This document shows, piece by piece, positions 34,766-48,839 of a stretch of DNA of 64,000 bases. Below the pieces are notes generated by a model. The model ran no database searches, was not told the origin of the DNA, and saw only the letters and a list, made by a program, of their open reading frames with translations. The translations under genes were made by a program, and so were the position numbers. This DNA comes from Planctomycetota bacterium (lineage in GTDB: Bacteria; Planctomycetota; Phycisphaerae; SM23-33), in the NCBI GenBank assembly GCA_030635145.1, contig DAOVZK010000004.1, positions 34,497 through 98,496 on the forward strand. The letters run 5' to 3'. Numbering within the stretch: the first letter of the stretch is position 1; each line of letters begins with the position of its first letter.

Positions 34766-36058
34766 CTAGTCGCATCGTTGCCATTCGGGTGGGTCGTTCA
34801 GACGGTACAGCATTTCCCCGGCCTTGGGCACATAGAGCTTACCTTCGTCTTCCTTGCCTTCCCATTCGGCGATGTCGATATCGGCGGGGTCGCGGTAGCC
34901 CATGTTGATCCGTTCGCAAAGCTCCTTCGGAATTCCCGTCGCCAGCGTAACCTTCACTCGCGACTGCTCCACCCCGTCTACAAAAGTGCCGATTCCGCGA
35001 ACATGCGTGCTGTGGGCGAGAATGCCCCACGGATAGTCTTTGAATTTGTCCCATTGCTCGACGAAATACGGCAGCGAATGGTAGCCGATCTGCTCGATGA
35101 CCGCACCGTGCGCGACGGCAAGTTCGTTGATGTGCGGGGCGTAGATAATCAGCTCACCGCCGTCGGCGACGGCGCATTCCATTTTGTACATGCATTTTCC
35201 GCCCGTCCACATTTCGTCGTACATCAGCGGAGCGCGGGATAGAATCGAATCGTACGCGCGGTCGCAGTAGGTGATGTGCGTTTTGTCCGAAAGATCAGCC
35301 GCCGCTGACCAGCTTGCGCGAACCTCATCGAAATATAACCCCGCCAAGTCGCTACCTTTTACGACCATGCTCAAGGCGTACTTGTCCATGTCGATCATGT
35401 CCATAGCCTCGTGCAAAAGTGCGCGGACGGGGGTATCCTTCACGCCGATCATTTTTGGAATCGTGATTAGTGCGCCCAGCCAGTGGAAAAAGTTCAGCAG
35501 CTCCTCGCCGCAAATGCCGGGGAAGAAATATTTCGCACCCCCGGAAAATCCCACGACTTCGTGCGGGAATACCGGCCCGGCGATCATAACGATGTCGTAG
35601 TCGAAGATCATCCTGTTTACGGTGACGTCTATGTCGCGGGAGAAGCGGGCGTTTTCAGGCGCGAGATATTTTTTGATTTCCGCCGCCGAGAACGTGCCGA
35701 TTTTCTTCAACGCGTCGGGGTTCTTCCATTCGTGATTAAAAATTTTGCTGCCGGGCAGCACCTCGCTACGCTGCCCAGGCTCGATGCCGAGAAGTTTGTC
35801 GAGTGAGTCTTCGCTCAGGGCGGGGTGCGTGCCGAGGGCTACGAGAAAATCCAACGCCTTTGCCCTTGGTGCGATATTTTTGTGGAGTTCGCGAGCGACT
35901 TTCGGCAGGGGGCAGGTGCGGGTATGATCGGGAATGATCACCAGCACGCGTTTGCCCTCGGGAGCTATGCGTTCCGCGGCGGCTGCGATTATTTCTTCTA
36001 TTTGCCCATCCGACAGCACAGCATCTTTTTGTCCAAACCCGATTACACTCATCGCCAT
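34766..36058 (-). CDS. Lactate racemase (LarA) family nickel-pincer protein
   Basis: PDHTR, ALGTH and PHEVVGFSGGAKYFFPG motifs. Confidence 0.82.
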   Translation of the reverse strand: MAMSVIGFGQKDAVLSDGQIEEIIAAAAERIAPEGKRVLVIIPDHTRTCPLPKVARELHKNIAPRAKALDFLVALGTHPALSEDSLDKLLGIEPGQRSEVLPGSKIFNHEWKNPDALKKIGTFSAAEIKKYLAPENARFSRDIDVTVNRMIFDYDIVMIAGPVFPHEVVGFSGGAKYFFPGICGEELLNFFHWLGALITIPKMIGVKDTPVRALLHEAMDMIDMDKYALSMVVKGSDLAGLYFDEVRASWSAAADLSDKTHITYCDRAYDSILSRAPLMYDEMWTGGKCMYKMECAVADGGELIIYAPHINELAVAHGAVIEQIGYHSLPYFVEQWDKFKDYPWGILAHSTHVRGIGTFVDGVEQSRVKVTLATGIPKELCERINMGYRDPADIDIAEWEGKEDEGKLYVPKAGEMLYRLNDPPEWQRCD

Positions 36059-36342
36059 TCTCGCTTTCGTCAATAAACAATAATTGTCCAATAATTGTCG
36101 CACGCTTTTCCCGCATGCCGCTACATCGTTTCTTATACCCCCGCGAGAAACTCCGATCAATTGTTTTCCGGTTTTGCACCTTGAATATGCGTCCAAAGAC
36201 ATTGACGCTACCTGTGAGGGGCGCGATTTCTCGAAGAGTGCCGCCCCCTTCGGTGCATAAAAAGTGGGTTATGCAAACTATTGTAAGCAAAAAAAATCAA
36301 AGTCTTTGCATTCTGCCTACTGCAATATACAATTGGAGTACT

Positions 36343-37665
36343 ATGATGCGGATAATACTTATTTCAATGGGCTTTCTTTTGATGATGACTGGTTTTGTGT
36401 CGGCTGAAAGTGAAAGCAAAACGGTCAAGCTTTCTTTCACCAAAAGCAAAAGCGTGCTCCGGCTAAGTTGGCCCATGAAACTCGGGAGCGGCGGATACCT
36501 CTTCAATAGTTCCACAAAGATATACGGGCACGATTTTTCTCTCAAGACCCAGAAAAAAGGCAGAAGCCTCGCCGTAAACCTCACCTCGAACGATGGTTCA
36601 TTTAAGCTGAAGCCCAAGATATATGCACGTAAGCCGATTGCCTTTAACATCCCCGCCAAGCTTGGCGAAAAAAATGTAATGCTGCCGTTGATGATGTCAA
36701 ACATTTTCACATCCGGCAAGGGCAAGAGCGAGGTTTATGCTCGCTACTATCCCGGGTGGGCGATGGCAGGGAAGGTCGGCAAGACGAAAATTTACCTTAT
36801 CGATGCGAATGTCGACACGAAGTTCGACACAAACGGCCGCGACTATATCGCCATCGGTTCATCGTACGCGATAAAACTTTGCAAGCAGACCGTAATCAAC
36901 GGTAAGCTTTATGAGGTATCGATCACCAGCGACGGAAGCGAGCTTACGCTTGAAGATCTCAAATCCGAGAAGCTTTGCAAAGTCGCCCTCAAAGCCCCCA
37001 AAGGCCTCGCCCGCTGGGGAGTGCTTTCTCTCAGCAACAACGAGGGAACATACAACATCGCCGCCAAAAATTGCAACGTGCTACCGGCTGGTACCTATAA
37101 AATCAGCTATGGGATATACGGCAAGGGTACGAATTACCTGTATCTCAGAAGGACCCAAAATTTCGATCCGCAGCTGGAAATTCGCGCGGGTAATATCAAC
37201 ACGATAAATATCGGTGCGCCTTTTGTTCTGAAGTTTAAGGCGACACTTACCGGCAAAACGGTAAAGGTCGATGCCAACATATCGGTCGCCGGGTGTTACG
37301 GTGAATCTTATCGGTACAGGTCATCTGTTAGAGGCAGAGGTGTGCCGCCGTCGGTGGCGATTTACGCGGGCAAAAAACGAGTTAGTACCGGCAAAATGGG
37401 GTTTGGCTGAGGCGGGAGCCTTTGCGGATACTCAAGGCGAGCATCCAAAGTTACGAAAAAAAACGGTTCGGTTGTTGTAGTCAGAACTTATGCGGGTATC
37501 GGCCGCGTTAAGGGCAAGGTTGTTTTTAGCGATGAGTCGAGTTCCGTATCCAAAGAAACGGAAATTGTAGAATACAAGCCCGTAAAAGAAAAACCGAAAG
37601 ATAACCAGACCGGCGAAGCAGAAGATAAGTCAACCGATAAAGAAAAATCGGACGATAAAGAGTAA
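36343..37665 (+). CDS. Putative secreted selenoprotein A, 440 aa; UGA 37408-37410 read as Sec356, motif FG-U-GGSLC
   Basis: GGAG RBS and signal peptide; frame stays open 84 codons past the TGA to TAA 37663-37665, then a terminator; SECIS-like hairpin; paralog at 40980-42278 has TGA at the aligned site. Confidence 0.8.
37420..37450 (+). promoter_or_regulatory. SECIS-like hairpin for UGA 37408
   Basis: CTTT-gc-GGAT-a-CTC[AAGGC]GAG-c-ATCC-AAAG; loop starts 23 nt after the UGA. Confidence 0.55.
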
Positions 37666-37779: not shown

Positions 37780-37872
37780 GGAGGTGCCCGGTATCCTGGT
37801 GGTGCCCTTGGTCTTCAAAACCAATGAGGGGCTCAAAAAGTCCTTGGTGGGTTCGATTCCCATTCACCTCCG
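37780..37872 (+). tRNA. selC: tRNA-Sec (anticodon UCA)
   Basis: Acceptor GGAGGTG/CACCTCC with discriminator G; 6-bp D stem; anticodon arm TTGGT-CTTCAAA-ACCAA; long variable arm; GGTTCGATTCC T-loop; no encoded CCA. Confidence 0.93.
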
Positions 37873-37889
37873 TTTTAAGAAGGACGCTG

Positions 37890-38180
37890 ATGACGCAATG
37901 CGAGAACAATATCACCCCCACGCGGGCTGACGAGCGACGCAGTTTATTGCTGCCGCTTGCACTGCTGGTTGCCGGCGCGATATTGTTTGCCGTCGGCTTT
38001 TTCGCAGTCCCGTGGCGTAAGGGCAAACCTGACACCGAGTACGAGTTCAATCGCGCGGTAGTTACAAACAAGCTCCCCGACCTCAATGGTGGCAGCTCCA
38101 AGATGGGGCAGGACGGTAAAACCGCCAAACCATCAAAGGGCGATAAAAAAAACGACGACTTCTGCCCTACGTGAATTTAG
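37890..38180 (+). CDS. Small membrane protein with candidate C-terminal CxxU (…FCPT-U-I*)
   Basis: AGGA RBS; one TM helix; ends TGC CCT ACG TGA ATT TAG TAA; downstream hairpin at SECIS spacing. Confidence 0.6.
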
Positions 38181-38188
38181 TAAATTTC

Positions 38189-38207
38189 GGTTACGCGTGC
38201 CGTGACC
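38189..38207 (+). promoter_or_regulatory. SECIS-like hairpin for UGA 38172
   Basis: GGTTACG[CGTGC]CGTGACC; loop starts 21 nt after the UGA. Confidence 0.5.
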
Positions 38208-38214
38208 ACCAGTA

Positions 38215-38372
38215 CTCTGTCCCATGAATAATGTTGTGTAGATGCGCCGTGCCGATGAGGTAGATGCAAAGAAGAAAAAAGGTTGCATATTAGTGGATAT
38301 TCCGCCTTTTTTCTGATGCAGCATATGCCTTGTCGCCACAAGCAGGTACCAATCAAAATTCATGGGACAGAG
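38215..38372. mobile_element. MITE-like element with perfect 15-bp terminal inverted repeats
   Basis: CTCTGTCCCATGAAT (38215-38229) and ATTCATGGGACAGAG (38358-38372). Confidence 0.7.
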
Positions 38373-38431
38373 CCTAGACCCCCAGCTCTAGGTTGCAACT
38401 GATGTGGAGCAAAATTTAACGACGAAAGAAT

Positions 38432-39235
38432 ATGGCGAAAAAACTCAGCTATTTCCGACTCCGGCGAATCGTACAGTTTCTGGTTCTACCGGTCTGGATG
38501 CTGCCGATAGCTGCACTTCGCGGAATACCGGGGTGCGTTTTTCACTGCTACGCCTGCCCGCTGAGTTCCTTTGCCTGCCCCATCGGGCTTATTGCCACAT
38601 CAATGGCGATGGGATTGGTGCCGTTGATGGTGCTGGGCGTAATCTTTGTCGCCGCTGCCGCCGTCGGTAGTGCGATTTGTGGATGGTTGTGCCCGTTCGG
38701 GTTACTGCAGGATTTGTTCCATAAAATTCCGACGCCGAAATTCAAACTCCCCGCATGGACAGGAATCGGTAGATACATCACGCTCATCGCGTTGGTGATC
38801 GTAGGGCCGCTGCTTTGGGGCAAGTCGGTCGACAACTACGCTTTCATCTGCAACCTATGCCCGGCCGGTGCAATCGAAGCCGGCCTGCCTCGTATAATCG
38901 CCGGACAAGTCTCCGTCGAAAGGCTGCTGAGCGTCAAATATATTGCCGCCGCGGTAATCGTGGGGCTGATGCTTTTCACGTATCGCCCGTGGTGTCGAAT
39001 GCTCTGCCCGCTGGGCGGATTTTTCGCGCTATTCAATCGCGTGAGCGTTTTGTTCCTTCGCCTTAAAACCGACAAATGCAGCAACTGCAAAACCTGCATC
39101 GTTGACTGCCCCTGCGATATCGACGTCAAAAAGGCCATCAACACATCAAGCTGCATACGCTGCATGAAATGCACTCAATGCAAAGTAGTTTCCCCGACAA
39201 CCATATTCGAAAAATTCGGTAACGGCGGGGAGTAA
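38432..39235 (+). CDS. Membrane 4Fe-4S binding protein (NapH/MauN/YccM-like polyferredoxin)
   Basis: CYACP..CPIG, CGWLCPFG, CNLCPAG and WCRMLCPLG motifs; two CxxCxxC clusters. Confidence 0.88.
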   Translation: MAKKLSYFRLRRIVQFLVLPVWMLPIAALRGIPGCVFHCYACPLSSFACPIGLIATSMAMGLVPLMVLGVIFVAAAAVGSAICGWLCPFGLLQDLFHKIPTPKFKLPAWTGIGRYITLIALVIVGPLLWGKSVDNYAFICNLCPAGAIEAGLPRIIAGQVSVERLLSVKYIAAAVIVGLMLFTYRPWCRMLCPLGGFFALFNRVSVLFLRLKTDKCSNCKTCIVDCPCDIDVKKAINTSSCIRCMKCTQCKVVSPTTIFEKFGNGGE

Positions 39236-39263
39236 CCCGTCGGCCGAATCTTGGCGGGAATTC

Positions 39264-39518
39264 TCAACAGCAGCAACCGTTGCTGTCGCCACCGACTTTT
39301 TTCATTTGTGCCACGTAGAACATCCGCACAACCGCGCCACCGACACCCACCCCCAGCCAAGCCGCCTCGTCAAGTTGCTCTTGCGTAATACCCATCTCAC
39401 GCGATTTTTTGTAATGAACCTCAAAACACTCTTCACATCGCCCGAGAATTATCAATGCAAACGTCATCAGTTGCTTGGTTTTCGCATCAATTTGCCCATC
39501 CGCGGAGACGGCCTGCAT
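39264..39518 (-). CDS. Carboxymuconolactone decarboxylase/AhpD-like domain (CxxC), in frame with selD
   Basis: IDAKTKQL...RCEECFEVH...GITQEQLDEA. Confidence 0.8.
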   Translation of the reverse strand: MQAVSADGQIDAKTKQLMTFALIILGRCEECFEVHYKKSREMGITQEQLDEAAWLGVGVGGAVVRMFYVAQMKKVGGDSNGCCC

Positions 39519-39533
39519 GAATGCACCAAATTT

Positions 39534-40976
39534 TTACGCCGAATCTTTTGCCGAATCATCTACAGGCGAATTACCGCAAACGTCACTGCAGCACTCATCT
39601 TGCGATTCCGCCGGTTTTTCGCAGCACGCGTTTTGTGATGGGTGTTGGGGTTCTTTCTCCGCGGAACAGCAGCAGGGCTTGGAGGTTGCTTCCTGCTGAG
39701 GCGAAATTTGATTATTGCAAACAACCTCGATGAAACCGTCAGAGTCCTGCGTAATTTCACCGATCACCCAGGCATTGGTTCCGCTGTTTTTCAGGTCGGT
39801 TAAGGCGTCGGTAAGTTTGTCTTTCGGTATCCCCAGCAGCAGTCCGCCCGACGTCTGCGCGTCGAAGCCCAGATAATACGCACCATCTGACACGCCGTCT
39901 TCTCGCGAGATATCATCCGCGACGAACTCCATATTACGCTCAATCGCACCGGGGATAACATCATCCCCAAGCAATTCAATCGCACCGCTAAACGCCGGTA
40001 ATGCACTCGCGAAAATCTTCGCCGTCACCCCACTGGCTCTAACCATCGCGATGAGATGCCCGAACAATCCGAACCCCGTAACATCGGTGCAGGCTGATGC
40101 GTATTTGCTACCGACGACGGCGGCGGTGTTGTTAAGAGTCGTCATTGACTCGCAGCTTTCGGCAAGTCCGCACTGGTCAGCTCTGCCGATCTGGGATGCG
40201 AACGCCAACACGCCGCTGCCAAGTTTTTTCGTCAGTACCAGCACATCCCCAGTCTTAACCGAATCATGTTTGAGATATTTTTTCTCATCGACCAGCCCCG
40301 TTATGGCGAACCCGAGTTTGATTTCTTCGTCTTTAATGCTGTGCCCGCCGATTAACGCAACCCCCGCGGCGTTGAAAATTTCCTGCGCACCAGCCATCAA
40401 CTCATACATCAATTCCCCGTCGAGCGTTTCGACCGGGAACCCCAGAATGCTAAGGGCGGTTTTTGGTACACCTCCCATGGCGTAGATATCGCTGAGGCAG
40501 TTGGCGGCACAGATTTTACCCATCTGCCTTGCATCGTCCACACATGGTGTCATAACGTCGACGGTTTGCACAATGCATAGTCCGTCGGTCAGCCGATAAA
40601 CACCCGCATCGTCGGCGGCGGGTAGTCCGCAGATAACGTTCGGGTCATTGCTAACGGTCAGCCGTTTGAGGACGGCTTCGAGATCGGCGGGTGGAATTTT
40701 GCTCGCGCACCCGGCGTTATGAACCAGTTGCGTCAGGCGAATGTCTTTGATGTTTTTCGGTTCGGGGCGTTCACCGGCACACGGGCAAATCCCCTGATCT
40801 TTGAAAACATCGCACGGGCAGGGACGTTTGGGATCACATATGCAGTGCCCAAGTTTTCTCGACCGCTGCATAATTCGCCGGCGCTTAACCAGATCGACTT
40901 TCGACATCTTTTTCAAAATTTCCAATCCCTCTAGCACGGCCCCCTTCATCCCGGGGGGACGTGTTGAGGGTTGCAA
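39534..40976 (-). CDS. selD: Selenophosphate synthetase with N- and C-terminal Cys-rich extensions (Cys form)
   Basis: GCASKI, DDAGVY, QTVD, GGHSI, TDVTGFGLFGH and DAQTSGGLL motifs. Confidence 0.95.
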   Translation of the reverse strand: MQPSTRPPGMKGAVLEGLEILKKMSKVDLVKRRRIMQRSRKLGHCICDPKRPCPCDVFKDQGICPCAGERPEPKNIKDIRLTQLVHNAGCASKIPPADLEAVLKRLTVSNDPNVICGLPAADDAGVYRLTDGLCIVQTVDVMTPCVDDARQMGKICAANCLSDIYAMGGVPKTALSILGFPVETLDGELMYELMAGAQEIFNAAGVALIGGHSIKDEEIKLGFAITGLVDEKKYLKHDSVKTGDVLVLTKKLGSGVLAFASQIGRADQCGLAESCESMTTLNNTAAVVGSKYASACTDVTGFGLFGHLIAMVRASGVTAKIFASALPAFSGAIELLGDDVIPGAIERNMEFVADDISREDGVSDGAYYLGFDAQTSGGLLLGIPKDKLTDALTDLKNSGTNAWVIGEITQDSDGFIEVVCNNQISPQQEATSKPCCCSAEKEPQHPSQNACCEKPAESQDECCSDVCGNSPVDDSAKDSA

Positions 40977-40979
40977 ATG

Positions 40980-42278
40980 CTACTTCGTCCTGATTTTCGT
41001 ATCCTTGAGTTTAATTCCAAACGGCCCGGCGGCGACCTTCGGTTTGATCGTAAACACTCCGCTTAAATTCTTTGGCACACTCCACGTGTGCGAGCATGTA
41101 CCACCTCAACCATACTCAAACTTACCCGTGTGGACAAGTTTGCCTTGCTCGTCGAAAACTTCCACTTGAGGTTTGCTGCTGTACATCGAATTAACCATCG
41201 CCGACATCCCCGACACATCGGTTAGCTTGAAATTCATCGTAATCCGCCGGCCGCGAGCTTTGATTTTTATTTGCCCGGTTAGCGGAGCTCCGATAGCCAG
41301 CTCAAAAGTCTTACCAGCTGCTGCATTGAATTTCTTCGCCGTTTTCTGCCGCAAGTTCTGCTGATCAATGCTCAATACATCGCCCTTGGTTGGTTGGATC
41401 TGCGTAAACTGCATCACAGTGTATTTACCGGCGGGAATTTCCATTGGTTTGCTGGAACCATCAAGCATCAGTATGTAGTCTTTACCGATTAGACCGATCG
41501 ACCAGTTATCATGATCGATTTTGAGCGTGGCTGTCTTGGCGGTTGAGGGGGTCGCGACAATTTCCGACTTGTCGGGCGACAACGCCACGTCGTACCAAAC
41601 ACCATCAAGAAGTACCGGTGCACCGTAGAGGGATTTTTTCAATTGATTCGGCTGCTTGAAGTTTCCCTTTCCCGTATCAATCAGCAACGTATCTCCGATT
41701 GTAACTCCGCTATTTTTCTGATATCGCGACTTGCTACCGCAGTTCAGGTTGTTGTTACCATCGACAATACGCACCGGATAGGTTTTGTCGCCAAATTTGC
41801 AGGTACCTTCCAATGCGGTTCCAAGGTATGCAATGATGTATTTATGATCACTGCTTGTATAGATGTGTCCCGAAAGCATTACCGGTATGGATTTACCGTT
41901 ACGTTCTACTTGTAATGTTGCAGGTCCAAAGTTCAAGCGGGAAGGATTACCCTTCTCCCTTTTTTTCAGGGGGACTACTTGCTTGTCGTTAAATTTGCCC
42001 TTGCCGCTGAAGTCAAAACGGACTACGTCGAAGCCTTCGGTGTCGGGTGATTGCGAGTCGATTGCCACGCGGATATTCTTCCCCCGCAGCTTTGTGACGA
42101 GAGCTTTTTTGCTGACGGTACCGTCGCCTTCTTTTGGCTTGGTGAATTGGTGGGCAAACAACGATTGTTGCATTATCGCCTGGCCCTGAGTTGCGGGGAC
42201 TGGTTTGAGATCCCCTTGGGCGATAGTTGCAGTCAAAACAACCAGCAGTAAAATGAACAGACCTATTGACGTTTTCAT
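40980..42278 (-). CDS. Putative secreted selenoprotein B, 432 aa; UGA 41106-41108 read as Sec391, motif YG-U-GGTC
   Basis: Signal peptide; frame continues UGGTCSHTWSVPKNLSG...IRTK to TAG 40980-40982, just before the selD start; lies between selB and selD; SECIS-like hairpin. Confidence 0.85.
41075..41091 (-). promoter_or_regulatory. SECIS-like hairpin for UGA 41106
   Basis: GCACAC[GTGGA]GTGTGC; G-starting loop 20 nt after the UGA, matching the general bacterial SECIS pattern. Confidence 0.7.
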
Positions 42279-42385
42279 TTCGGCCCCTTTCTCGAGGTTG
42301 TATCTCGAAAAATGTTTAACGTATTATACAGGCAACAGATATGCAGCGTCAAAGGGGTTTTTGCGGAAAACACTGCGCCGATGGG

Positions 42386-44332
42386 TTATTCGTTTTCGAG
42401 AATTTCGCGGGCCAGTCGGCCGGGCCGGCGGCGGTTGGCGTTGCGGACGGTCCAATGCGTAACGTCGAAATAATCCAGCAGCGGCACGGCGTATTTTCTG
42501 CTGACACCGATGGCGTCGCGAAACTCAACTGTCTCGAAGAATTTCTGCCCGCGGAACAAATCGAGCACAACTTCGCGCGCCTTATCCACACCGCATTTGT
42601 GCATGTAGACGTTATCAGCTAACCGCACCGCCAAGCTGCGAGAACAAATCAGCTCCAGAACCTCGTCAATTTTTTGCTGCGGAGACTGCAGCTGCTCGGC
42701 AAGCTGATCGGGACGCGGTGGAGCACACAGAGATTTTTTTAATACGCTCAATACTTGTTCGTAAAGTTCTGCAATATCGCTCGGCAGCGAGAGATTAAAT
42801 TCGCAGTGCGAAATTTTCCCCGCCTCTTCGCTGATTTTTCCATCGGCGAGAAGTTTTTCGCAGCACTTGGCGAAAATCGCTTTGGGCAAGGCCGTCTGTG
42901 TAAGCAGGGCAGCTGTGTCGAGCCCCGGTAACTGCGGGTTGGCTGCGTGGAATTGTTCCAGTGCGTGCGTAATAGTTTCACATGCCTGCGAAAAATAATC
43001 CGCACCGGCAATTGAATCCCCAAGAACGATGGCGTCGCCATGCTGCGTAAGGTTTGCGATAATTCCCGCGATTTCATTGTCGGTAAGTTGCAGCATATCC
43101 GCCAGGCCGTCGGTGGTAACCATGCGATCCGAATATTTTAAATAGCGTTTTGCAAAGTTTGTAGCATATTCTGGGTGTTCGATGGCGTCGCTGAGTTGTT
43201 CAAGTTTTTCGATTACTTCAGGCCGGTTGCGGCGTAATTTGCGGTTGCTGCGATCCAGAAACACACCGCCACCCAACGTCGTAAAAATTCCGCCCATCTG
43301 CCCGCGAACAACGAATCGGTCACCCGGAATTACGGGCAGCTTGACAGCGGATCGAAACTGAACATATCCACGCCAGTTCGATTCCATAACACCGGATGAC
43401 AAGGGAACGATTTTGACCGGCACGTCTATGGTGCCGACATGCAGGCGGACTTCGGCATGGTCTTTGATAGGTTTTGCGATGCTCCCCAGCACGCGAAACG
43501 ACGCTTCGAACATCTCGGGTGTCGCTATTTTTCGTTCGCTGAGCAAGCTTCCGCGGGTGCAGTCTTCGGGGGGCGTGTTGGCGAGATTAATCGCCGTACA
43601 TTCGCCCGCCCGGGCTGTGTCGCAGAGCTGCCCGTAAACCTCAAGCCCGCGGACTCGCACTTTTTTTCCCGATGGCCAGGCGCAGAGGGCATCGCCAACG
43701 CTCACGCTACCGCTGCACGGAATTCCCGACGCGACGGTTCCGAACCCCTTGACGTGAAAACTTCGCTCGACCCACTGGCGGTAAAGTCCACCGGTGCTTC
43801 GCTCAGCGGTGGCGTCGACTTCGCGGTTCAGCTCGGTCAGAAAATTGTCGTACCCCTCGCCGGTAATATTGGAAACTTCGCAAACCGCCTTGCCCTCGAG
43901 AAACGTACCCTTAACGAACGACCGTATCTGCCCACCCAGTTCCATCCGCCGTTTTTCACTCACGAGGTCAACCTTAGTCATCACCACCAAACCAAACGTC
44001 ACTCCCATCAGCGTAAGAATATCCAGATGCTCGCGGGTTTGCGGCATGATGCCATCGTCGGCGGCGATAACGAGCATCAGCACATCCACACCGTGCGCAC
44101 CGGCAACCATGTTTCGGATGAACCCCACATGCCCGGGAACGTCCACAATGCCCACAATACGATCATCCGCCATTTTGCACGGGGCAAAACCCAGCTCGAT
44201 AGTCAGCCCGCGCGTTTGCTCTTCAGCGAGCGTATCGGTGTTGCACCCAGTGAGCATTTTCACCAGCGCCGTCTTGCCATGATCCACATGCCCAGCCGTC
44301 CCAAGCATCACGTTTTTACAACGTTGCGTCAT
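42386..44332 (-). CDS. selB: Selenocysteine-specific elongation factor SelB
   Basis: GTAGHVDHGKT, RGLTIELGF and DVPGH motifs; C-terminal winged helix FRDAIGVSRKYAVPLLDYFD. Confidence 0.96.
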   Translation of the reverse strand: MTQRCKNVMLGTAGHVDHGKTALVKMLTGCNTDTLAEEQTRGLTIELGFAPCKMADDRIVGIVDVPGHVGFIRNMVAGAHGVDVLMLVIAADDGIMPQTREHLDILTLMGVTFGLVVMTKVDLVSEKRRMELGGQIRSFVKGTFLEGKAVCEVSNITGEGYDNFLTELNREVDATAERSTGGLYRQWVERSFHVKGFGTVASGIPCSGSVSVGDALCAWPSGKKVRVRGLEVYGQLCDTARAGECTAINLANTPPEDCTRGSLLSERKIATPEMFEASFRVLGSIAKPIKDHAEVRLHVGTIDVPVKIVPLSSGVMESNWRGYVQFRSAVKLPVIPGDRFVVRGQMGGIFTTLGGGVFLDRSNRKLRRNRPEVIEKLEQLSDAIEHPEYATNFAKRYLKYSDRMVTTDGLADMLQLTDNEIAGIIANLTQHGDAIVLGDSIAGADYFSQACETITHALEQFHAANPQLPGLDTAALLTQTALPKAIFAKCCEKLLADGKISEEAGKISHCEFNLSLPSDIAELYEQVLSVLKKSLCAPPRPDQLAEQLQSPQQKIDEVLELICSRSLAVRLADNVYMHKCGVDKAREVVLDLFRGQKFFETVEFRDAIGVSRKYAVPLLDYFDVTHWTVRNANRRRPGRLAREILENE

Positions 44333-45747
44333 TGGGCTGCACCGATCATCGCAAAGGTTTTTGCAATGGCATCTATGTCGCCCGGAAGCAAGGTTCGCAC
44401 ATCGAGAATGACTTTCTCCTCGCTTATACGGCTGAAAATCGGCACCTCGCCCGTTCGCAACTCAGCCCCCAGCGAATCTGCCGACATCCCATCAACGCTA
44501 ACCCCCACGCCGAATCCGGGAAGCTTTTCCATCGGTAACGATCCGCTCCCGAGGAAACCTGCTGAGTCGATGACGGCGGCGGCGACTTTCCCCGAGGCCT
44601 TGCTGATAGCATCACACAACTGCTGCGCCGTTTGCTTAAGTTCGTCGGGCTTCAGCGAGAGCATCATGTAAAGCGGATGTTCGCGGTTGAGCTTTTCACG
44701 ATCACGAAAAAGCATCAATGTTCGCTCAAGCACCATAAGCGAGCTTTTGTCGGCCCGAAACGCACGATACAACGGGTGCTTACGACATTTGTTGATAAAC
44801 TTTTCCTTACCGACGAGAATTCCGCCTTGGGCGGCACCGATGAGTTTGTCGGCGCTGAAAAGTACGATATCGGCCCCGGTTTGCACGGAGTGCTGCACGG
44901 TCGGTTCGTGCGGAAGCCCGTAATCGGCAAGGTCGACAAGTGCCCCGGCCCCAAGGTCGTCGATCATCGGTAAGTCATGCTCGTGGGCAAGGGCGGTGAG
45001 TTCTTCGACGCCTACGCTGCTGGTAAATCCGACGATTCGATAGTTGCTGGGATGTGCGCGGAAGACGGCGGCGGTGTTTTCGGTGAGGGCTTTTTCGTAG
45101 TCGCGCAGATGCGTGCGGTTTGTCGATCCGACTTCGACGAGTTTGCAGCGTGAAAGCTCCATGACCTCCGGTAAGCGAAAGCTCCCGCCGATTTCGATCA
45201 GCTGCCCGCGCGAAACGATGACTTCTTTGTTGCTCGCCATCGCTGCCAACACCAACGTGGTTGCGGCGGCGTTGTTGTTGACCACGATCCCGGCCTCGGC
45301 GCCGGTTAGTTCGCAAAGCATGTTGTTAACTTTGGTGTCACGCTCGCATCGCTTGCCGGTTTTTTCGTCTATCGCAAGCGTTACGTAACCCTTAAGGTCG
45401 TTGATGATGTCGTCGACTACGCAGGTCGGCCAGACGGCACGGCCTAATCCGGTGTGCAGAATGATGCCGGTGGCATTTACGGCCCGTCGCAGATGCGGCC
45501 GCGTTCGCTCGCACAGATTTTGCTGCACGATACCCAAAATGAACTCGCTGCTGATGTGCTGCACTCCGCAGCGGCCGGTGCTGTCGTTGAGAATCTGCTG
45601 GCGCAGAGAATCGATAGCATCTCGCACGCAATTTACCACGAGCGTTCGCGGATGATCTTGCAGCCAAGCCGCCACGATATCAATTTTAATGAGATCATCT
45701 ATCGACGGAAGTTTTCGCAAAAGTTCTTGTTTGATCGCCGCTGCCAT
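44329..45747 (-). CDS. selA: L-seryl-tRNA(Sec) selenium transferase
   Basis: NATGIILHTGLGRA, VNNNAAA, SRGQLIEIGGSFR and FSADKL motifs; ATGA overlap with selB. Confidence 0.96.
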   Translation of the reverse strand: MAAAIKQELLRKLPSIDDLIKIDIVAAWLQDHPRTLVVNCVRDAIDSLRQQILNDSTGRCGVQHISSEFILGIVQQNLCERTRPHLRRAVNATGIILHTGLGRAVWPTCVVDDIINDLKGYVTLAIDEKTGKRCERDTKVNNMLCELTGAEAGIVVNNNAAATTLVLAAMASNKEVIVSRGQLIEIGGSFRLPEVMELSRCKLVEVGSTNRTHLRDYEKALTENTAAVFRAHPSNYRIVGFTSSVGVEELTALAHEHDLPMIDDLGAGALVDLADYGLPHEPTVQHSVQTGADIVLFSADKLIGAAQGGILVGKEKFINKCRKHPLYRAFRADKSSLMVLERTLMLFRDREKLNREHPLYMMLSLKPDELKQTAQQLCDAISKASGKVAAAVIDSAGFLGSGSLPMEKLPGFGVGVSVDGMSADSLGAELRTGEVPIFSRISEEKVILDVRTLLPGDIDAIAKTFAMIGAAQ

Positions 45748-45807
45748 ATCAGCCTCCCACAAGTAGCATTAATTTTTTCGACAAGATTACAGGATAGTTA
45801 TTTGTTT

Positions 45808-46079: not shown

Positions 46080-46841
46080 CTAGCGGTCGGTTTCTGTAAA
46101 TACCCGTCGCACTTTCAAAAGCACATTTACGAAATCATCGCCTAGCCGATTTCGCGGGCGGGGTAGATCGACCTGGAATTCCGCAACCATTCGGCCTGCC
46201 GCCATGACGACGATGCGGTCGGCAAGGAAAACTGCTTCTTCGAGAGAGTGCGTGACGAACAGCACCGTTTGGTGATCCTCAAACCAAACGTCCAGTAGCT
46301 CACCCTGCAACCGGTGCCGCGTCGGTTCGTCTAAATTCGCAAACGGTTCGTCCATCAGCCAAATTCGCGAACCGGCACACAACGTACGTCCAAGCGCCAC
46401 ACGCTGCCGCATTCCGCCCGAAAGCTCATGCGGAAAACTCTTGGCGACCTTCTGTGGCAGCCCCACCCGCGAAAGTGCCTCCCTGGCAGCAGCGATTCGC
46501 TTGTGCCGTTTGGCACCTTGAATTTCCGGGCCAAGAGCGATATTGTCCAAAACCTTTCGCCACGGTAAGAGGTTTCCCTCTTGCGTCACCAGGCCAATAT
46601 CTGCTGCCCCATTTACGCGACTCGAGTCTACGACCACCTCGCCCGTCGTTGGTTTTTCAAGCCCCGCCGCCAACCGCAGCAACGTGGTTTTACCGCAACC
46701 CGACGCACCCAGCACGCATGTGAGCTGACCTTCGTGGGCTAGTAGATTGAAGTCGCGCACGGCCCACACATCACCTCGACCGGGGGTTGAGAAACACTTC
46801 CCGGCGTTGCTGAATCGAATTAGTTCACGTTTGTCGTTCAT
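46080..46841 (-). CDS. NitT/TauT-family ABC transporter ATPase
   Basis: GASGCGKT, LSGGMRQR and MDEPF motifs. Confidence 0.9.
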   Translation of the reverse strand: MNDKRELIRFSNAGKCFSTPGRGDVWAVRDFNLLAHEGQLTCVLGASGCGKTTLLRLAAGLEKPTTGEVVVDSSRVNGAADIGLVTQEGNLLPWRKVLDNIALGPEIQGAKRHKRIAAAREALSRVGLPQKVAKSFPHELSGGMRQRVALGRTLCAGSRIWLMDEPFANLDEPTRHRLQGELLDVWFEDHQTVLFVTHSLEEAVFLADRIVVMAAGRMVAEFQVDLPRPRNRLGDDFVNVLLKVRRVFTETDR

Positions 46842-46842
46842 A

Positions 46843-47685
46843 CTATCGTTCCTGTACCATCCATCGGGTACTGCGAAGCGAGGCCAGACGTAACACCGCA
46901 TCGAAACACAAGCCAATCAGGCCGATAACGATGATACTTGCGAAGGCGTATTCGTAGGAGGCTGTCTCGTGGGCGACGGCGATCATGTATCCAAGCCCGC
47001 CGCGCGTGCCGGGGAAAATTTCGGCTGCGATAATCACTCGCCAAGCAATTCCACCGGCAAGGCGCAGCCCCGTAAAAATCGCCGGACTCGCACTCGGGAG
47101 CACGATCTTTGTCAGCACGGCAAACTTTCCGGCACCTAAAACCGTCGCGGCCTCGATGTGACTTTGGCGAACATGCTGTGCCCCGGAAGCGGTGTTGAGC
47201 ACAATCGGAAAAAATGCGCCCATCCAGATGACGGCGATTATGGCGAATCGCAGCTGGTCGAGCACCCCGTGCTGCCATGCGTTTTGGCCGTAAACGGCAG
47301 TCGCCGGACTCGACAAACCGAAAACGATAATCGTAATCGGAATCCACGCAATCGGACTTATCGCCATCGCCACAGCAGTAACCGGAGCGAGAATTTCCCT
47401 GCCGGTTCGGCTGCGCCCTATAAGCAGCCCGACAGGGATGCCTGTAATTACAGCCAGCAGAAACCCGCACAACATGCGAAGCACGCTAACGGCAGCGCCG
47501 TCGGCGAGGGATGTCGAGTCCAGGCAGAGCGGCTCGCGAAACGGATGAATCAGAATCTGCACCACCGACCAGACGGACGGGACGACAACGCTGCCGGGGG
47601 CGGTGAAATACCACAGCAAAATCACGCCCATCGGAATCATCGCACCGAGGAGCATTTTTCGGATTGCTGTTCGGGGGGTTATCAT
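46843..47685 (-). CDS. NitT/TauT-family ABC transporter permease
   Basis: IEAATVLGA EAA loop; AWRVIIAAE. Confidence 0.9.
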   Translation of the reverse strand: MITPRTAIRKMLLGAMIPMGVILLWYFTAPGSVVVPSVWSVVQILIHPFREPLCLDSTSLADGAAVSVLRMLCGFLLAVITGIPVGLLIGRSRTGREILAPVTAVAMAISPIAWIPITIIVFGLSSPATAVYGQNAWQHGVLDQLRFAIIAVIWMGAFFPIVLNTASGAQHVRQSHIEAATVLGAGKFAVLTKIVLPSASPAIFTGLRLAGGIAWRVIIAAEIFPGTRGGLGYMIAVAHETASYEYAFASIIVIGLIGLCFDAVLRLASLRSTRWMVQER

Positions 47686-48839
47686 TTTTTGAGAGCACCG
47701 CTCGATTGCAACTCCTCGTAGGCCTGTTTGCACAGCTCAAGGCTGCAGATGTCCTTGATGAAGTTGTCAGGAGAGATGGTTGCGTATTTACCTTTAAACG
47801 TTCCGGTGTCCTGCATCAGGGTGACCCATGTTTTCATTCCCGATATCCAGCTGTCAGTCGGTTCGGCGAGGTATGAAATGGTCGGAACCGACATCACCTC
47901 GACTTCGCGTGGATTTTTCGTCCACCGGGAGGCGCAGTCGATAGCGGTGCCCTGATTATCCTGGATAAGCTTCGTGGCGAGTATGATGCACTTGAGTAAA
48001 GCTTTGACGGCGTCGGGATGGTCTTCGAGAGTTTTGACGGTGGCGCTGACGCAGCAGCATGGGTGGTCGACCCACTTGCCGTTCGGGGGCAGATCGCGCA
48101 GTTCGGCGACTACCTTACCGAGCTTCTTATGTACAGCTACTGCGACAGGGGGCTGATGCATTACGAAACCGTCGATGGCTTGACTTTCGAGAAGTGGTAG
48201 GGGGCTTTTTTCGCTCATCATGTTGATGAGGACCACGCGTGCGTTTTTGTCGGCGGGGTTTTGGGAAAATGGTATGCCCGCGGATTTCAGGGCACCGACA
48301 AAAACGAGTTTGGCGACGGCGGTGGGGGCTTTGTATCCGATTTTCAGTGGCCTTTTGCCGTTTTTGGCGGCTGCGACGAAGGAGTCCCAGTCGTTGATTT
48401 CGCTGCCGGTTCGCATAACAAGCATATCACCGTCGGTTTGCAGCGGACAGATGATCTTAAAGGGCTGACCTTTGTCGGCGAACTTGGCGACGGCTGCGAC
48501 ACCGCCCAAACCAATGTCGAGTTCGCCACGGGTCATGGCGGCGGGCATTCTGCTGCCACCACCAACTTTCACAAATCGCAGCAATGCAAGCTTCTTACCA
48601 TTTTCGATAAGTTCGTAAACTTCCCGCGGTTTGACTTCCTTAAGATAGGGCAGCGATGCTTTTTTGAAGCGCTCGCCCTCCAGGGCAGCTACGAAAAGGG
48701 CTAATTGATGGTCGTGCCCCACATGGCCGACCGTAAGCATAACGGGTGCGCTATCGGAGGGATCCTGAGGCTGCGACGATTTGTTACATCCTAAAACCGC
48801 GATCACAATAAACGAGAACAACAGCATCTTGCTTTTCAT
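47682..48839 (-). CDS. NitT/TauT-family ABC substrate-binding lipoprotein
   Basis: Lipobox VLGC; GHDHQLA and DHPCCC motifs. Confidence 0.85.
   Translation of the reverse strand: MKSKMLLFSFIVIAVLGCNKSSQPQDPSDSAPVMLTVGHVGHDHQLALFVAALEGERFKKASLPYLKEVKPREVYELIENGKKLALLRFVKVGGGSRMPAAMTRGELDIGLGGVAAVAKFADKGQPFKIICPLQTDGDMLVMRTGSEINDWDSFVAAAKNGKRPLKIGYKAPTAVAKLVFVGALKSAGIPFSQNPADKNARVVLINMMSEKSPLPLLESQAIDGFVMHQPPVAVAVHKKLGKVVAELRDLPPNGKWVDHPCCCVSATVKTLEDHPDAVKALLKCIILATKLIQDNQGTAIDCASRWTKNPREVEVMSVPTISYLAEPTDSWISGMKTWVTLMQDTGTFKGKYATISPDNFIKDICSLELCKQAYEELQSSGALKK

Follow-up and report, generated by a model that had tools for sequence, protein, structure and literature searches.

A putative exported selenoprotein encoded between selB and selD in a Planctomycetota bacterium, and a distant paralogue beside tRNA-Sec

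We analysed gene X, which is located on the minus strand between selB and selD in a 64,000-nucleotide stretch of DNA from a Planctomycetota bacterium (assembly GCA_030635145.1, contig DAOVZK010000004.1), designated the window in the following. X very probably is a genuine selenocysteine (Sec)-decoding gene for an exported protein of 432 residues. A first-pass annotation of this DNA had interpreted an in-frame UGA of this gene as being read through, and this interpretation is supported by a tail conserved among homologues, an invariant TGA, covariation within a downstream hairpin and the Sec machinery encoded next to the gene. It is this comparative evidence that carries the case, not the features of the single sequence. 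X and its homologues are referred to as family A.

Results

An in-frame UGA at codon 391 of gene X

The following features of X are relevant here.

40980..42278, minus strand: complete predicted gene of selenoprotein X (family A), with UGA391 among its 432 codons, then TAG; supported by homologues
41106..41108, minus strand: in-frame UGA, predicted to be read as Sec391; TGA column invariant in 23/23 genes
40980..41105, minus strand: putative C-terminal extension, 41 codons plus TAG, predicted to complete the C-terminal domain with its final strands
41094..41096, minus strand: codon of Cys395, the putative partner in U-G-G-T-C; Cys in 20/23 U-form genes
41075..41091, minus strand: hairpin resembling a selenocysteine insertion sequence (SECIS), 6-bp stem GCACAC/GUGUGC, loop GUGGA, starting 14 nt past the UGA
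42213..42278, minus strand: signal-peptide-like N-terminus of ~22 aa, ending AQG before a conserved GDL.PV; cleavage site placed by eye

The open reading frame (ORF) 41106..42278 on the minus strand comprises 390 aa and has the C-terminus FEYG, followed by TGA at 41108-41106. Past this TGA the frame stays open for 41 sense codons up to a TAG at 40982-40980. Both parts are as the first-pass annotation had described them, including the peptide that it quoted for the extension, and the resulting motif U391-G-G-T-C395 is the UxxxC that it had pointed out. The extension also closes the gap of ~130 bp that would otherwise separate the ORF from selD, the distance from the UGA to the TTG of the longest selD ORF being 129 nt. 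The TAG was said to stand three bases (40979-40977) before this TTG at 40976, which holds true as a position, but the TTG probably is not the real start of selD (see below). A stretch of 41 codons stays open by chance with a probability of ~0.14, i.e. (61/64)^41, and the open extension is thus unremarkable alone and weak evidence by itself.

The name Selenoprotein B, which the first-pass annotation had used, does not fit in the sense of GrdB. X yielded zero Pfam or NCBIfam matches at E <= 0.01, the GrdB family models among them, and therefore X is not the selenoprotein B of glycine reductase; this identity is ruled out.

The tail behind the UGA resembles coding sequence

A word-indexed protein search returned 25 proteins, and 24 homologues were aligned to X. 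All but one of them (23/24) end at the same ..[EQ]YG column, while P0018 reads through and has a tail that aligns with the extension in the window. An exhaustive protein search gave 754 cluster representatives at E <= 1e-3, 199 of which reached E <= 1e-30. Among 166 database sequences from both searches, 130 end with [YFW][GSA] and ~15 apparently at the same place with other residues; read-through forms amounted to 15.

The corresponding DNA was compared in 19 loci from metagenome-assembled genomes of Planctomycetota/Phycisphaerae (L001-L019). A TGA occupies the column of the presumed Sec (U column) in at least one gene of 17 loci; with the tandem copies of L003, L004, L013 and L017 included, this amounts to 22 genes. 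The exceptions are L018, which represents a form without U, and L019, which is cut by the contig end. Together with the window, the internal TGA is invariant in 23/23 genes. The true terminal stop varies in the same genes: 13 end with TAG (12 loci and the window), five with TGA and five with TAA. In 18 of the 23 genes the extension measures 41 codons, in the others 40-44, and its pairwise divergence at the three codon positions (0.43/0.34/0.55) resembles that of the 22 codons upstream of the UGA (0.39/0.29/0.53). Around the site the consensus reads YG-U-G-[GFS]-x-C-[SAP]-[HR]-[TS]-W-x-[VA]-P. Farther upstream in the protein, Cys160 is nearly invariant. The first-pass annotation had made its proposal dependent on protein-level conservation past the UGA; such conservation is found, both in the 22 further TGA genes and in 15 homologues devoid of the TGA. 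The constant frame and length of the tail, its coding-type divergence and the invariant TGA argue that the tail is translated in frame with the body. Comparative evidence shows that UGA391 is a conserved sense position and that the 41 codons following it are translated.

Family A genes are frequently duplicated in tandem. Two to three U-bearing copies are present in L003, L004, L013 and L017, and each copy retains UGA and hairpin. Several family A profile matches also lie side by side in G005:C22 and G031:C387.

Gene callers end the protein at the UGA (130/166 database entries), and a stable hairpin follows. Both observations would suit a real stop, in which case the product has 390 aa and the downstream part belongs to a small ORF of its own or to an RNA element, e.g. 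a regulatory hairpin of selD. We regard this explanation as highly improbable. The TGA is invariant (23/23) while true terminal stops vary, and the tail has no start codon of its own but stays in frame, with constant length and a coding pattern by codon position. Head and tail are encoded as one protein in the 15 TGA-less homologues, conservation extends ~90 nt past the hairpin, and the same layout occurs in genes that do not precede selD (L001; upstream tandem copies in L003 and L004).

A SECIS-like hairpin with compensatory base changes

In bacteria, the complex of SelB, GTP and Sec-tRNA(Sec) binds a SECIS hairpin and, competing with RF2, brings Sec to the ribosome; the bacterial SECIS consensus has a G in the first two positions of the loop. 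The perfect 6-bp hairpin GCACAC[GUGGA]GUGUGC noticed in the first-pass annotation, with its loop 20 nt past the UGA, is indeed present at 41091-41075. Across the 23 genes, 137 of 138 base-pair cells of the stem are paired. At pair 3, 20 genes have A-U and three have G-C; at pair 5, 16 have A-U, five U-A, one G-C and one U-G. Compensatory changes affect two pairs, with 10 cells altered on both sides, and the sole one-sided change that breaks a pair is C/U in L015. None of 500 shuffles reached the observed covariation score, and pairing was lost in shifted registers.

Both arms of the hairpin are also coding, as illustrated by SHTWSVP versus SRSWRAP, where Arg in place of His is accompanied by Ala in place of Val. 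Compensatory base changes thus force coordinated amino acid changes, which argues for a constraint acting on the RNA and is hard to explain otherwise. The loop consensus is RUGGN and contains UGG, in line with the apical G of a SECIS-like stem-loop, and binding by SelB is predicted. With its start 14 nt past the UGA, the hairpin of family A has the position expected for a SECIS element in bacteria.

Sec machinery in the window and SelB among relatives

The window encodes the complete Sec machinery.

42386..44332, minus strand: selB (TIGR00475, 287.7 bits versus a cut-off of 242)
44329..45762, minus strand: selA (TIGR00474, 524.5 bits)
39534..40976, minus strand: selD, Cys-type; probable start ATG 40907; Cys-rich N- and C-terminal extensions
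37780..37872, plus strand: tRNA-Sec (selC), detected by ARAGORN and Rfam

The genes selA, selB, selC and selD all lie inside 37780-45762, i.e. within 8 kb. The location of X inside a run of sel genes was therefore correctly recognised at first pass, the order being selA-selB-X-selD with tRNA-Sec nearby. This order, often followed by tRNA-Sec, recurs in L004, L005, L009, L010, L013 and L017, and it is seen in part, limited by contig ends, in L003, L006, L008, L011 and L016. For these neighbourhoods, only gene clusters backed by tblastn or Pfam were counted.

Co-occurrence with SelB was addressed in 41 genomes, comprising this genome (93% complete) and 40 relatives. SelB scored over the curated cut-off in 18 of them, and 16 of these 18 also contain family A, presence being defined by a profile match. 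Among the 23 genomes without SelB over the cut-off, five have a family A match. In G014 SelB is fragmented; G022 has a full-length family A match in a genome that is 78% complete; and the matches in G009, G016 and G039 are partial and do not reach the U column. Since the relatives are not independent, the co-occurrence of SelB and family A is an association and not a statistical test.

Family B, a predicted paralogue next to tRNA-Sec

A second gene of the window ends at a TGA in a similar context.

36346..37665, plus strand: putative selenoprotein gene of family B, paralogous to X; length 439 codons; UGA 37408-37410; TAA 37663-37665

Its ORF (36115/36346..37410, plus strand) lies directly upstream of tRNA-Sec and ends GKMGFG-TGA. 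Past the UGA the frame continues with GGSLCGYS.. over 84 codons to the TAA, yielding the motif GFG-U-GGSLC. In BLASTP, the C-terminal regions of this gene and of X align on both sides of U (E 4e-5); a search with the profile of family A detects the family B gene with E 1.7e-8. Eight further family B genes with one in-frame TGA were found in seven relatives, all of which are SelB-positive; SelB-positive G001 has family B and no family A match. The motif [FY]G-U-GG-x(1,2)-C is common to the family B genes, and their database entries are truncated at U. A hairpin is present here as well, with the consensus GUACUC-AGGGC-GAGUAC; the copy in the window (37426-37446) has one A/C mismatch. Pairing holds in 59 of the 60 cells from 10 genes, with three cells altered on both sides. 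No family of Pfam-A or NCBIfam release 20 matches the family B gene. Judged from these alignments, family B is likely a distant paralogue that works as family A does.

Loci L009-L011 contain a further gene of interest, unrelated to families A and B, after selD. It encodes a TlpA/AhpC-like protein with thioredoxin fold, ends ..KFG-U-GK-stop (L009:9190-10203, L010 ~7820, L011 ~8636) and carries a 7-8-bp hairpin with the loop UUGGUG in its 3' untranslated region, in which a compensatory change from G-C to A-U separates loci. We consider this gene a candidate for a third selenoprotein with Sec in the penultimate region; tblastn found no homologue of it in the genome of the window. All three families have in common a UGA, a spacer of ~14-20 nt, a stem that is short and GC-rich, and a GG-containing loop. 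Sharing of one design by three gene families fits the expectation for a lineage-specific SECIS element.

Other candidate selenoproteins and the genetic code

Sec-containing formate dehydrogenase is the usual client of the Sec machinery and the commonest bacterial selenoprotein. A Sec-type formate dehydrogenase was found neither in this genome nor in the 40 relatives, so that, as far as the genomes searched show, the clade seems to lack this most common selenoprotein of bacteria. In this genome, matches to the Molybdopterin, AhpC-TSA, Thioredoxin and CMD families are free of in-frame stops and no Rdx family member was found; likewise, none of 21 molybdopterin enzyme matches in the 41 genomes has an in-frame stop. 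This argues against a general reassignment of TGA.

Three screens of the genome were run. A relaxed genome-wide screen, asking for Cys within five residues of U, ranked the two genes of the window first and third of 51, the others being unconvincing. A hairpin-based screen gave 97 matches, recovered X and missed family B owing to the stem mismatch, the remainder being terminator-like noise. A stricter coding-potential screen missed even X and the family B gene. Families A and B are the sole selenoprotein candidates found, and the Sec machinery may therefore be kept for them here.

An AhpD-like ORF of the CMD family (39264..39518, minus strand) follows right after selD and has a CEEC motif and the C-terminus CCC-TGA. 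It was rejected as a selenoprotein because the frame past its TGA is antisense to a NapH-like gene and contains further TGAs.

The UGA of X could also be read by other means than Sec insertion, that is by an alternative code with TGA as Trp or Gly, or by a near-cognate tRNA. Two close homologues that have W (TGG) or R at this column are compatible with such a reading. We rate its probability as negligible, given the lack of in-frame TGA in the other families checked in this genome and in the 21 molybdopterin matches of the 41 genomes, the complete adjacent Sec machinery with the SECIS-like hairpin, and the fact that the family tracks SelB across relatives.

Export, fold and proposed mechanism of protein X

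The first-pass annotation had described X as secreted, and this fits a crude hydropathy test, in which 93 of 98 members show a signal-like hydrophobic segment at the N-terminus. For X itself, the 11-residue Kyte-Doolittle maximum is 3.53 (residues 5-15), and the 19-residue maximum elsewhere is 0.89. Hydropathy reveals no further membrane-like segment in this protein, and on this crude test X has the appearance of a substrate of the general secretory pathway.

X belongs to none of the families in Pfam-A or NCBIfam release 20, and the 98 members give sub-threshold matches only. Beta-type patterns are abundant in family A. For the C-terminal domain, sub-threshold Pfam matches comprise MG2 (PF01835), seen in 9 of the 98 members with E 0.0075 at best, and FlgD_ig, seen in 6; profile searches of the PDB gave weak matches to a collagen adhesin chain (E 0.39) and the S-layer protein Sap (E 0.019), and nothing better than E 1.5 besides. 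These weak matches point to a beta-sandwich of immunoglobulin (Ig)- or macroglobulin (MG)-like type as a putative fold.

We propose that the adjacent SelB, together with Sec-tRNA(Sec), would recognise the hairpin and insert Sec at UGA391, and that X would then be exported by the general secretory pathway. Sec391 would be carried by a loop of the C-terminal beta-sandwich domain and in most cases precede Cys395 by four residues, in the motif YG-U-GG-x-C-S-H-T-W. Both residues could act outside the cytoplasm as a selenol/thiol pair, either by forming a selenenylsulfide or by binding chalcogens or soft metals. If X is a selenoprotein, the chances of a redox-catalytic or relay role are about even. 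The thiol-redox neighbours, AhpD-like in the window and TlpA-like in L009-L011, fit such a role. Selenium capture or delivery appears unlikely by comparison, and a metal-binding role is similarly doubtful.

Homologues without the TGA and evidence weighing against Sec decoding

The 15 natural homologues without TGA run straight through the same region as single head-plus-tail proteins. At the Sec column they have W, L, W, R, Q, G, R, G, V, P, I, gaps and one Cys. A Cys-aligned homologue, which is customary rather than mechanistic as a criterion, is thus essentially lacking for family A, and since Cys is nearly absent from the column, searches for Cys/Sec pairs would miss the family. In a tree of 20 U-form and 15 TGA-less rows, which was unrooted and left out family B and the truncated database entries, the TGA-less rows are interspersed among the U-forms; seven label changes are needed, at least three of which are forced by well-supported branches. 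This placement suggests that Sec was repeatedly lost or gained and hardly ever swapped for Cys; the unrooted tree is compatible with either direction of change.

The module also occurs in larger proteins. P0028 (803 aa) has a BlaR1-type Peptidase_M56 domain (E 6e-28) fused to a Sec-less family A module, and accordingly the module can act as an outward-facing sensor or binding domain. In long forms of 1300-1400 aa (P0112, P0126, P0141, P0163) the module is C-terminal and the N-terminal domains are unrecognisable.

Several observations weigh against X being a selenoprotein of the kind proposed. On folding, a 76-nt stretch reached a modest z-score of only -2.29, and 4 of 200 shuffles folded equally well. 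The G does not always fall within the first two positions of the RUGGN loop. The partner Cys is missing in three U-form genes (L007, L012, L017b). Cys replaces Sec in only one (P0148) of the 15 TGA-less homologues, and the apparent replaceability of Sec by non-redox residues weakens a catalytic role, which is not secure. The fold is assigned from sub-threshold matches only. Two crude screens yielded no other credible selenoprotein in the 93%-complete genome, which is no proof of absence. Finally, the presence of selenium in the polypeptide is a prediction from comparison.

The start of selD and the neighbourhood of the sel genes

SelD tblastn matches in other loci start at residue 19-26 of the 480-aa ORF, and the first 23 residues of the longest selD ORF are unmatched there. 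Therefore, the real start of selD probably is the ATG at 40907-40905, which leaves a gap of ~72 nt behind the TAG of X instead of 3 nt. The corresponding gaps in other loci amount to ~43-61 nt and represent ordinary operon spacing. No terminator-like site was found on the minus strand between the UGA and selD. The spacer between selB and X includes one further feature.

42323..42352, minus strand: promoter-like TTGACG-18-TATAAT, identified solely by an 11/12 consensus match

This arrangement bears on the possibility that the UGA also is a selenium-sensing gate, by which Sec supply would be coupled to selD translation or mRNA stability. A U-bearing family A gene stands immediately upstream of selD in the window and in L003-L006, L008-L011, L013 and L017, the U constantly precedes the stop by 40-44 codons, and the TAG is 3 nt from the TTG of the longest selD ORF without a terminator-like site in between. 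We consider such a gate very unlikely, as the probable selD start is 72 nt downstream, the gaps elsewhere (~43-61 nt) are ordinary and family A genes are also found away from selD.

Both extensions of SelD are rich in Cys, with HCICDP..PCPC..CPC in the N-terminal one and CCC, CC and CC in the C-terminal tail. Between selD and tRNA-Sec lies a gene for a NapH/MauN-like 4Fe-4S membrane protein (38432..39235, plus strand), which occupies the same place in L004. An ATP-binding cassette (ABC) transporter consisting of ATPase, permease and NMT1-like binding protein is encoded at 46080-48839 (minus strand), abutting selA, and may be an importer of selenium or sulfur compounds; homologous components are found beside sel genes in L017, L001 and L004. 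Family B is adjoined by a LarA-like gene (34766-36202, minus strand) of the nickel-pincer cofactor-dependent racemase/epimerase family, whose best match, below cut-off, is a putative hexonate epimerase.

A different function is conceivable for a Sec-decoded X, namely that of an exported or periplasmic carrier which captures selenium and feeds the NMT1-type ABC transporter and subsequently SelD. Its place in the middle of the sel operon would thereby be explained. In the window and at least eight loci X is flanked by selB and selD, the transporter abuts selA and its components recur by sel genes (L017, L001, L004), SelD has Cys-rich extensions, and family B stands beside tRNA-Sec. The argument rests on neighbourhood alone, and selenoprotein genes can adjoin sel genes without acting on selenium, as PMC4807772 states in connection with fdhA. 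Moreover, family A is on a different contig from selB in G035, G011, G029, G031 and G032, and families A and B are adjacent in L001 with no sel gene within the 12.6-kb locus. We therefore judge the carrier function improbable.

Discussion

Taken together, the data argue for Sec decoding of X, and we provisionally regard families A and B as two related, undescribed selenoprotein families whose decoding looks canonical by sequence. Full-text literature searches gave no account of either family, with the supplementary family lists (BSepDB, deep-Sep, Table S9 of PMC4807772) outside their scope, and no description was found in the accessible parts of PMC13188914 (a 2026 review), PMC12013277 (deep-Sep), PMC13326102 (BSepDB) and PMC4807772 (Porphyra planctomycete). 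What sets family A apart are its predicted export, its location in the sel operon, the near-absence of Cys homologues and its probable position as the main Sec client of the lineage.

Two related uncurated families would thereby be added to the known selenoproteins. Family A comprises 754 cluster representatives, most of which are stored truncated; ~150 of the 166 entries examined are devoid of the last 41 residues, and censuses of the Planctomycetota selenoproteome are incomplete. As Sec-formate dehydrogenase was not found, families A and B appear to be the main Sec clients and the main reason for which the lineage keeps its Sec machinery. Family A also breaks the Cys/Sec-pair rule of discovery pipelines, and similar families may be missed systematically. 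An exported Sec on an Ig-like scaffold, combined with a compact SECIS, would lend itself well, in a non-model phylum, to work on selenium chemistry outside the cytoplasm and on the recognition of SECIS elements by SelB.

The observations can be combined into one far-reaching scenario. The entire Sec apparatus of Sec-decoding Phycisphaerae and their relatives would be kept for families A and B, which would capture or reduce selenium or another chalcogen outside the cytoplasm and feed the transporter and SelD; the Sec codon, 41 codons ahead of selD, would gate selD, and the Sec site would have originated in a non-redox scaffold that never passed through a Cys stage. If true, this would constitute a self-contained, self-regulating selenium module, but as a whole the scenario is rather unlikely.

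In comparison with the fdhF paradigm of E. coli, X likewise has an in-frame UGA, a nearby intragenic stem-loop and dependence on selA, selB, selC and selD. However, X belongs to an unrelated protein family, its short hairpin has a stem of 6 bp and a RUGGN pentaloop, and the gene is inside the sel operon. Exported or periplasmic thiol-disulfide selenoproteins of the DsbA-, TlpA-, Prx- and thioredoxin-like types exist, and X resembles them in its predicted extracytoplasmic site and in a Sec near a Cys, suggesting selenenylsulfide chemistry. In contrast to these proteins, family A gives no thioredoxin fold signal, has U-x3-C spacing on a putative Ig/MG-like loop, and its Sec-less relatives, except for one with Cys, lack a redox residue at that position. 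The C-terminal domain of family A is similar, below threshold, to the MG2, FlgD-Ig and CnaB beta-sandwiches and reaches no curated cut-off; we know of no member of these families that carries Sec. With the BlaR1-type M56 sensors, whose extracytoplasmic C-terminal domains vary, there is a link through P0028, in which the Sec-less module is fused, whereas the window protein is free-standing and has a signal peptide and a predicted Sec. According to the preprint by Haft and Gwadz (bioRxiv 10.1101/2022.07.06.499078), selenoprotein families have been recognised from C-terminally truncated database entries. Like family A, these are recognisable by a pattern of truncation together with gene neighbourhood; they are reported to be anchored on Cys-aligned homologues, whereas in family A only one of 15 TGA-less homologues provides a Cys.

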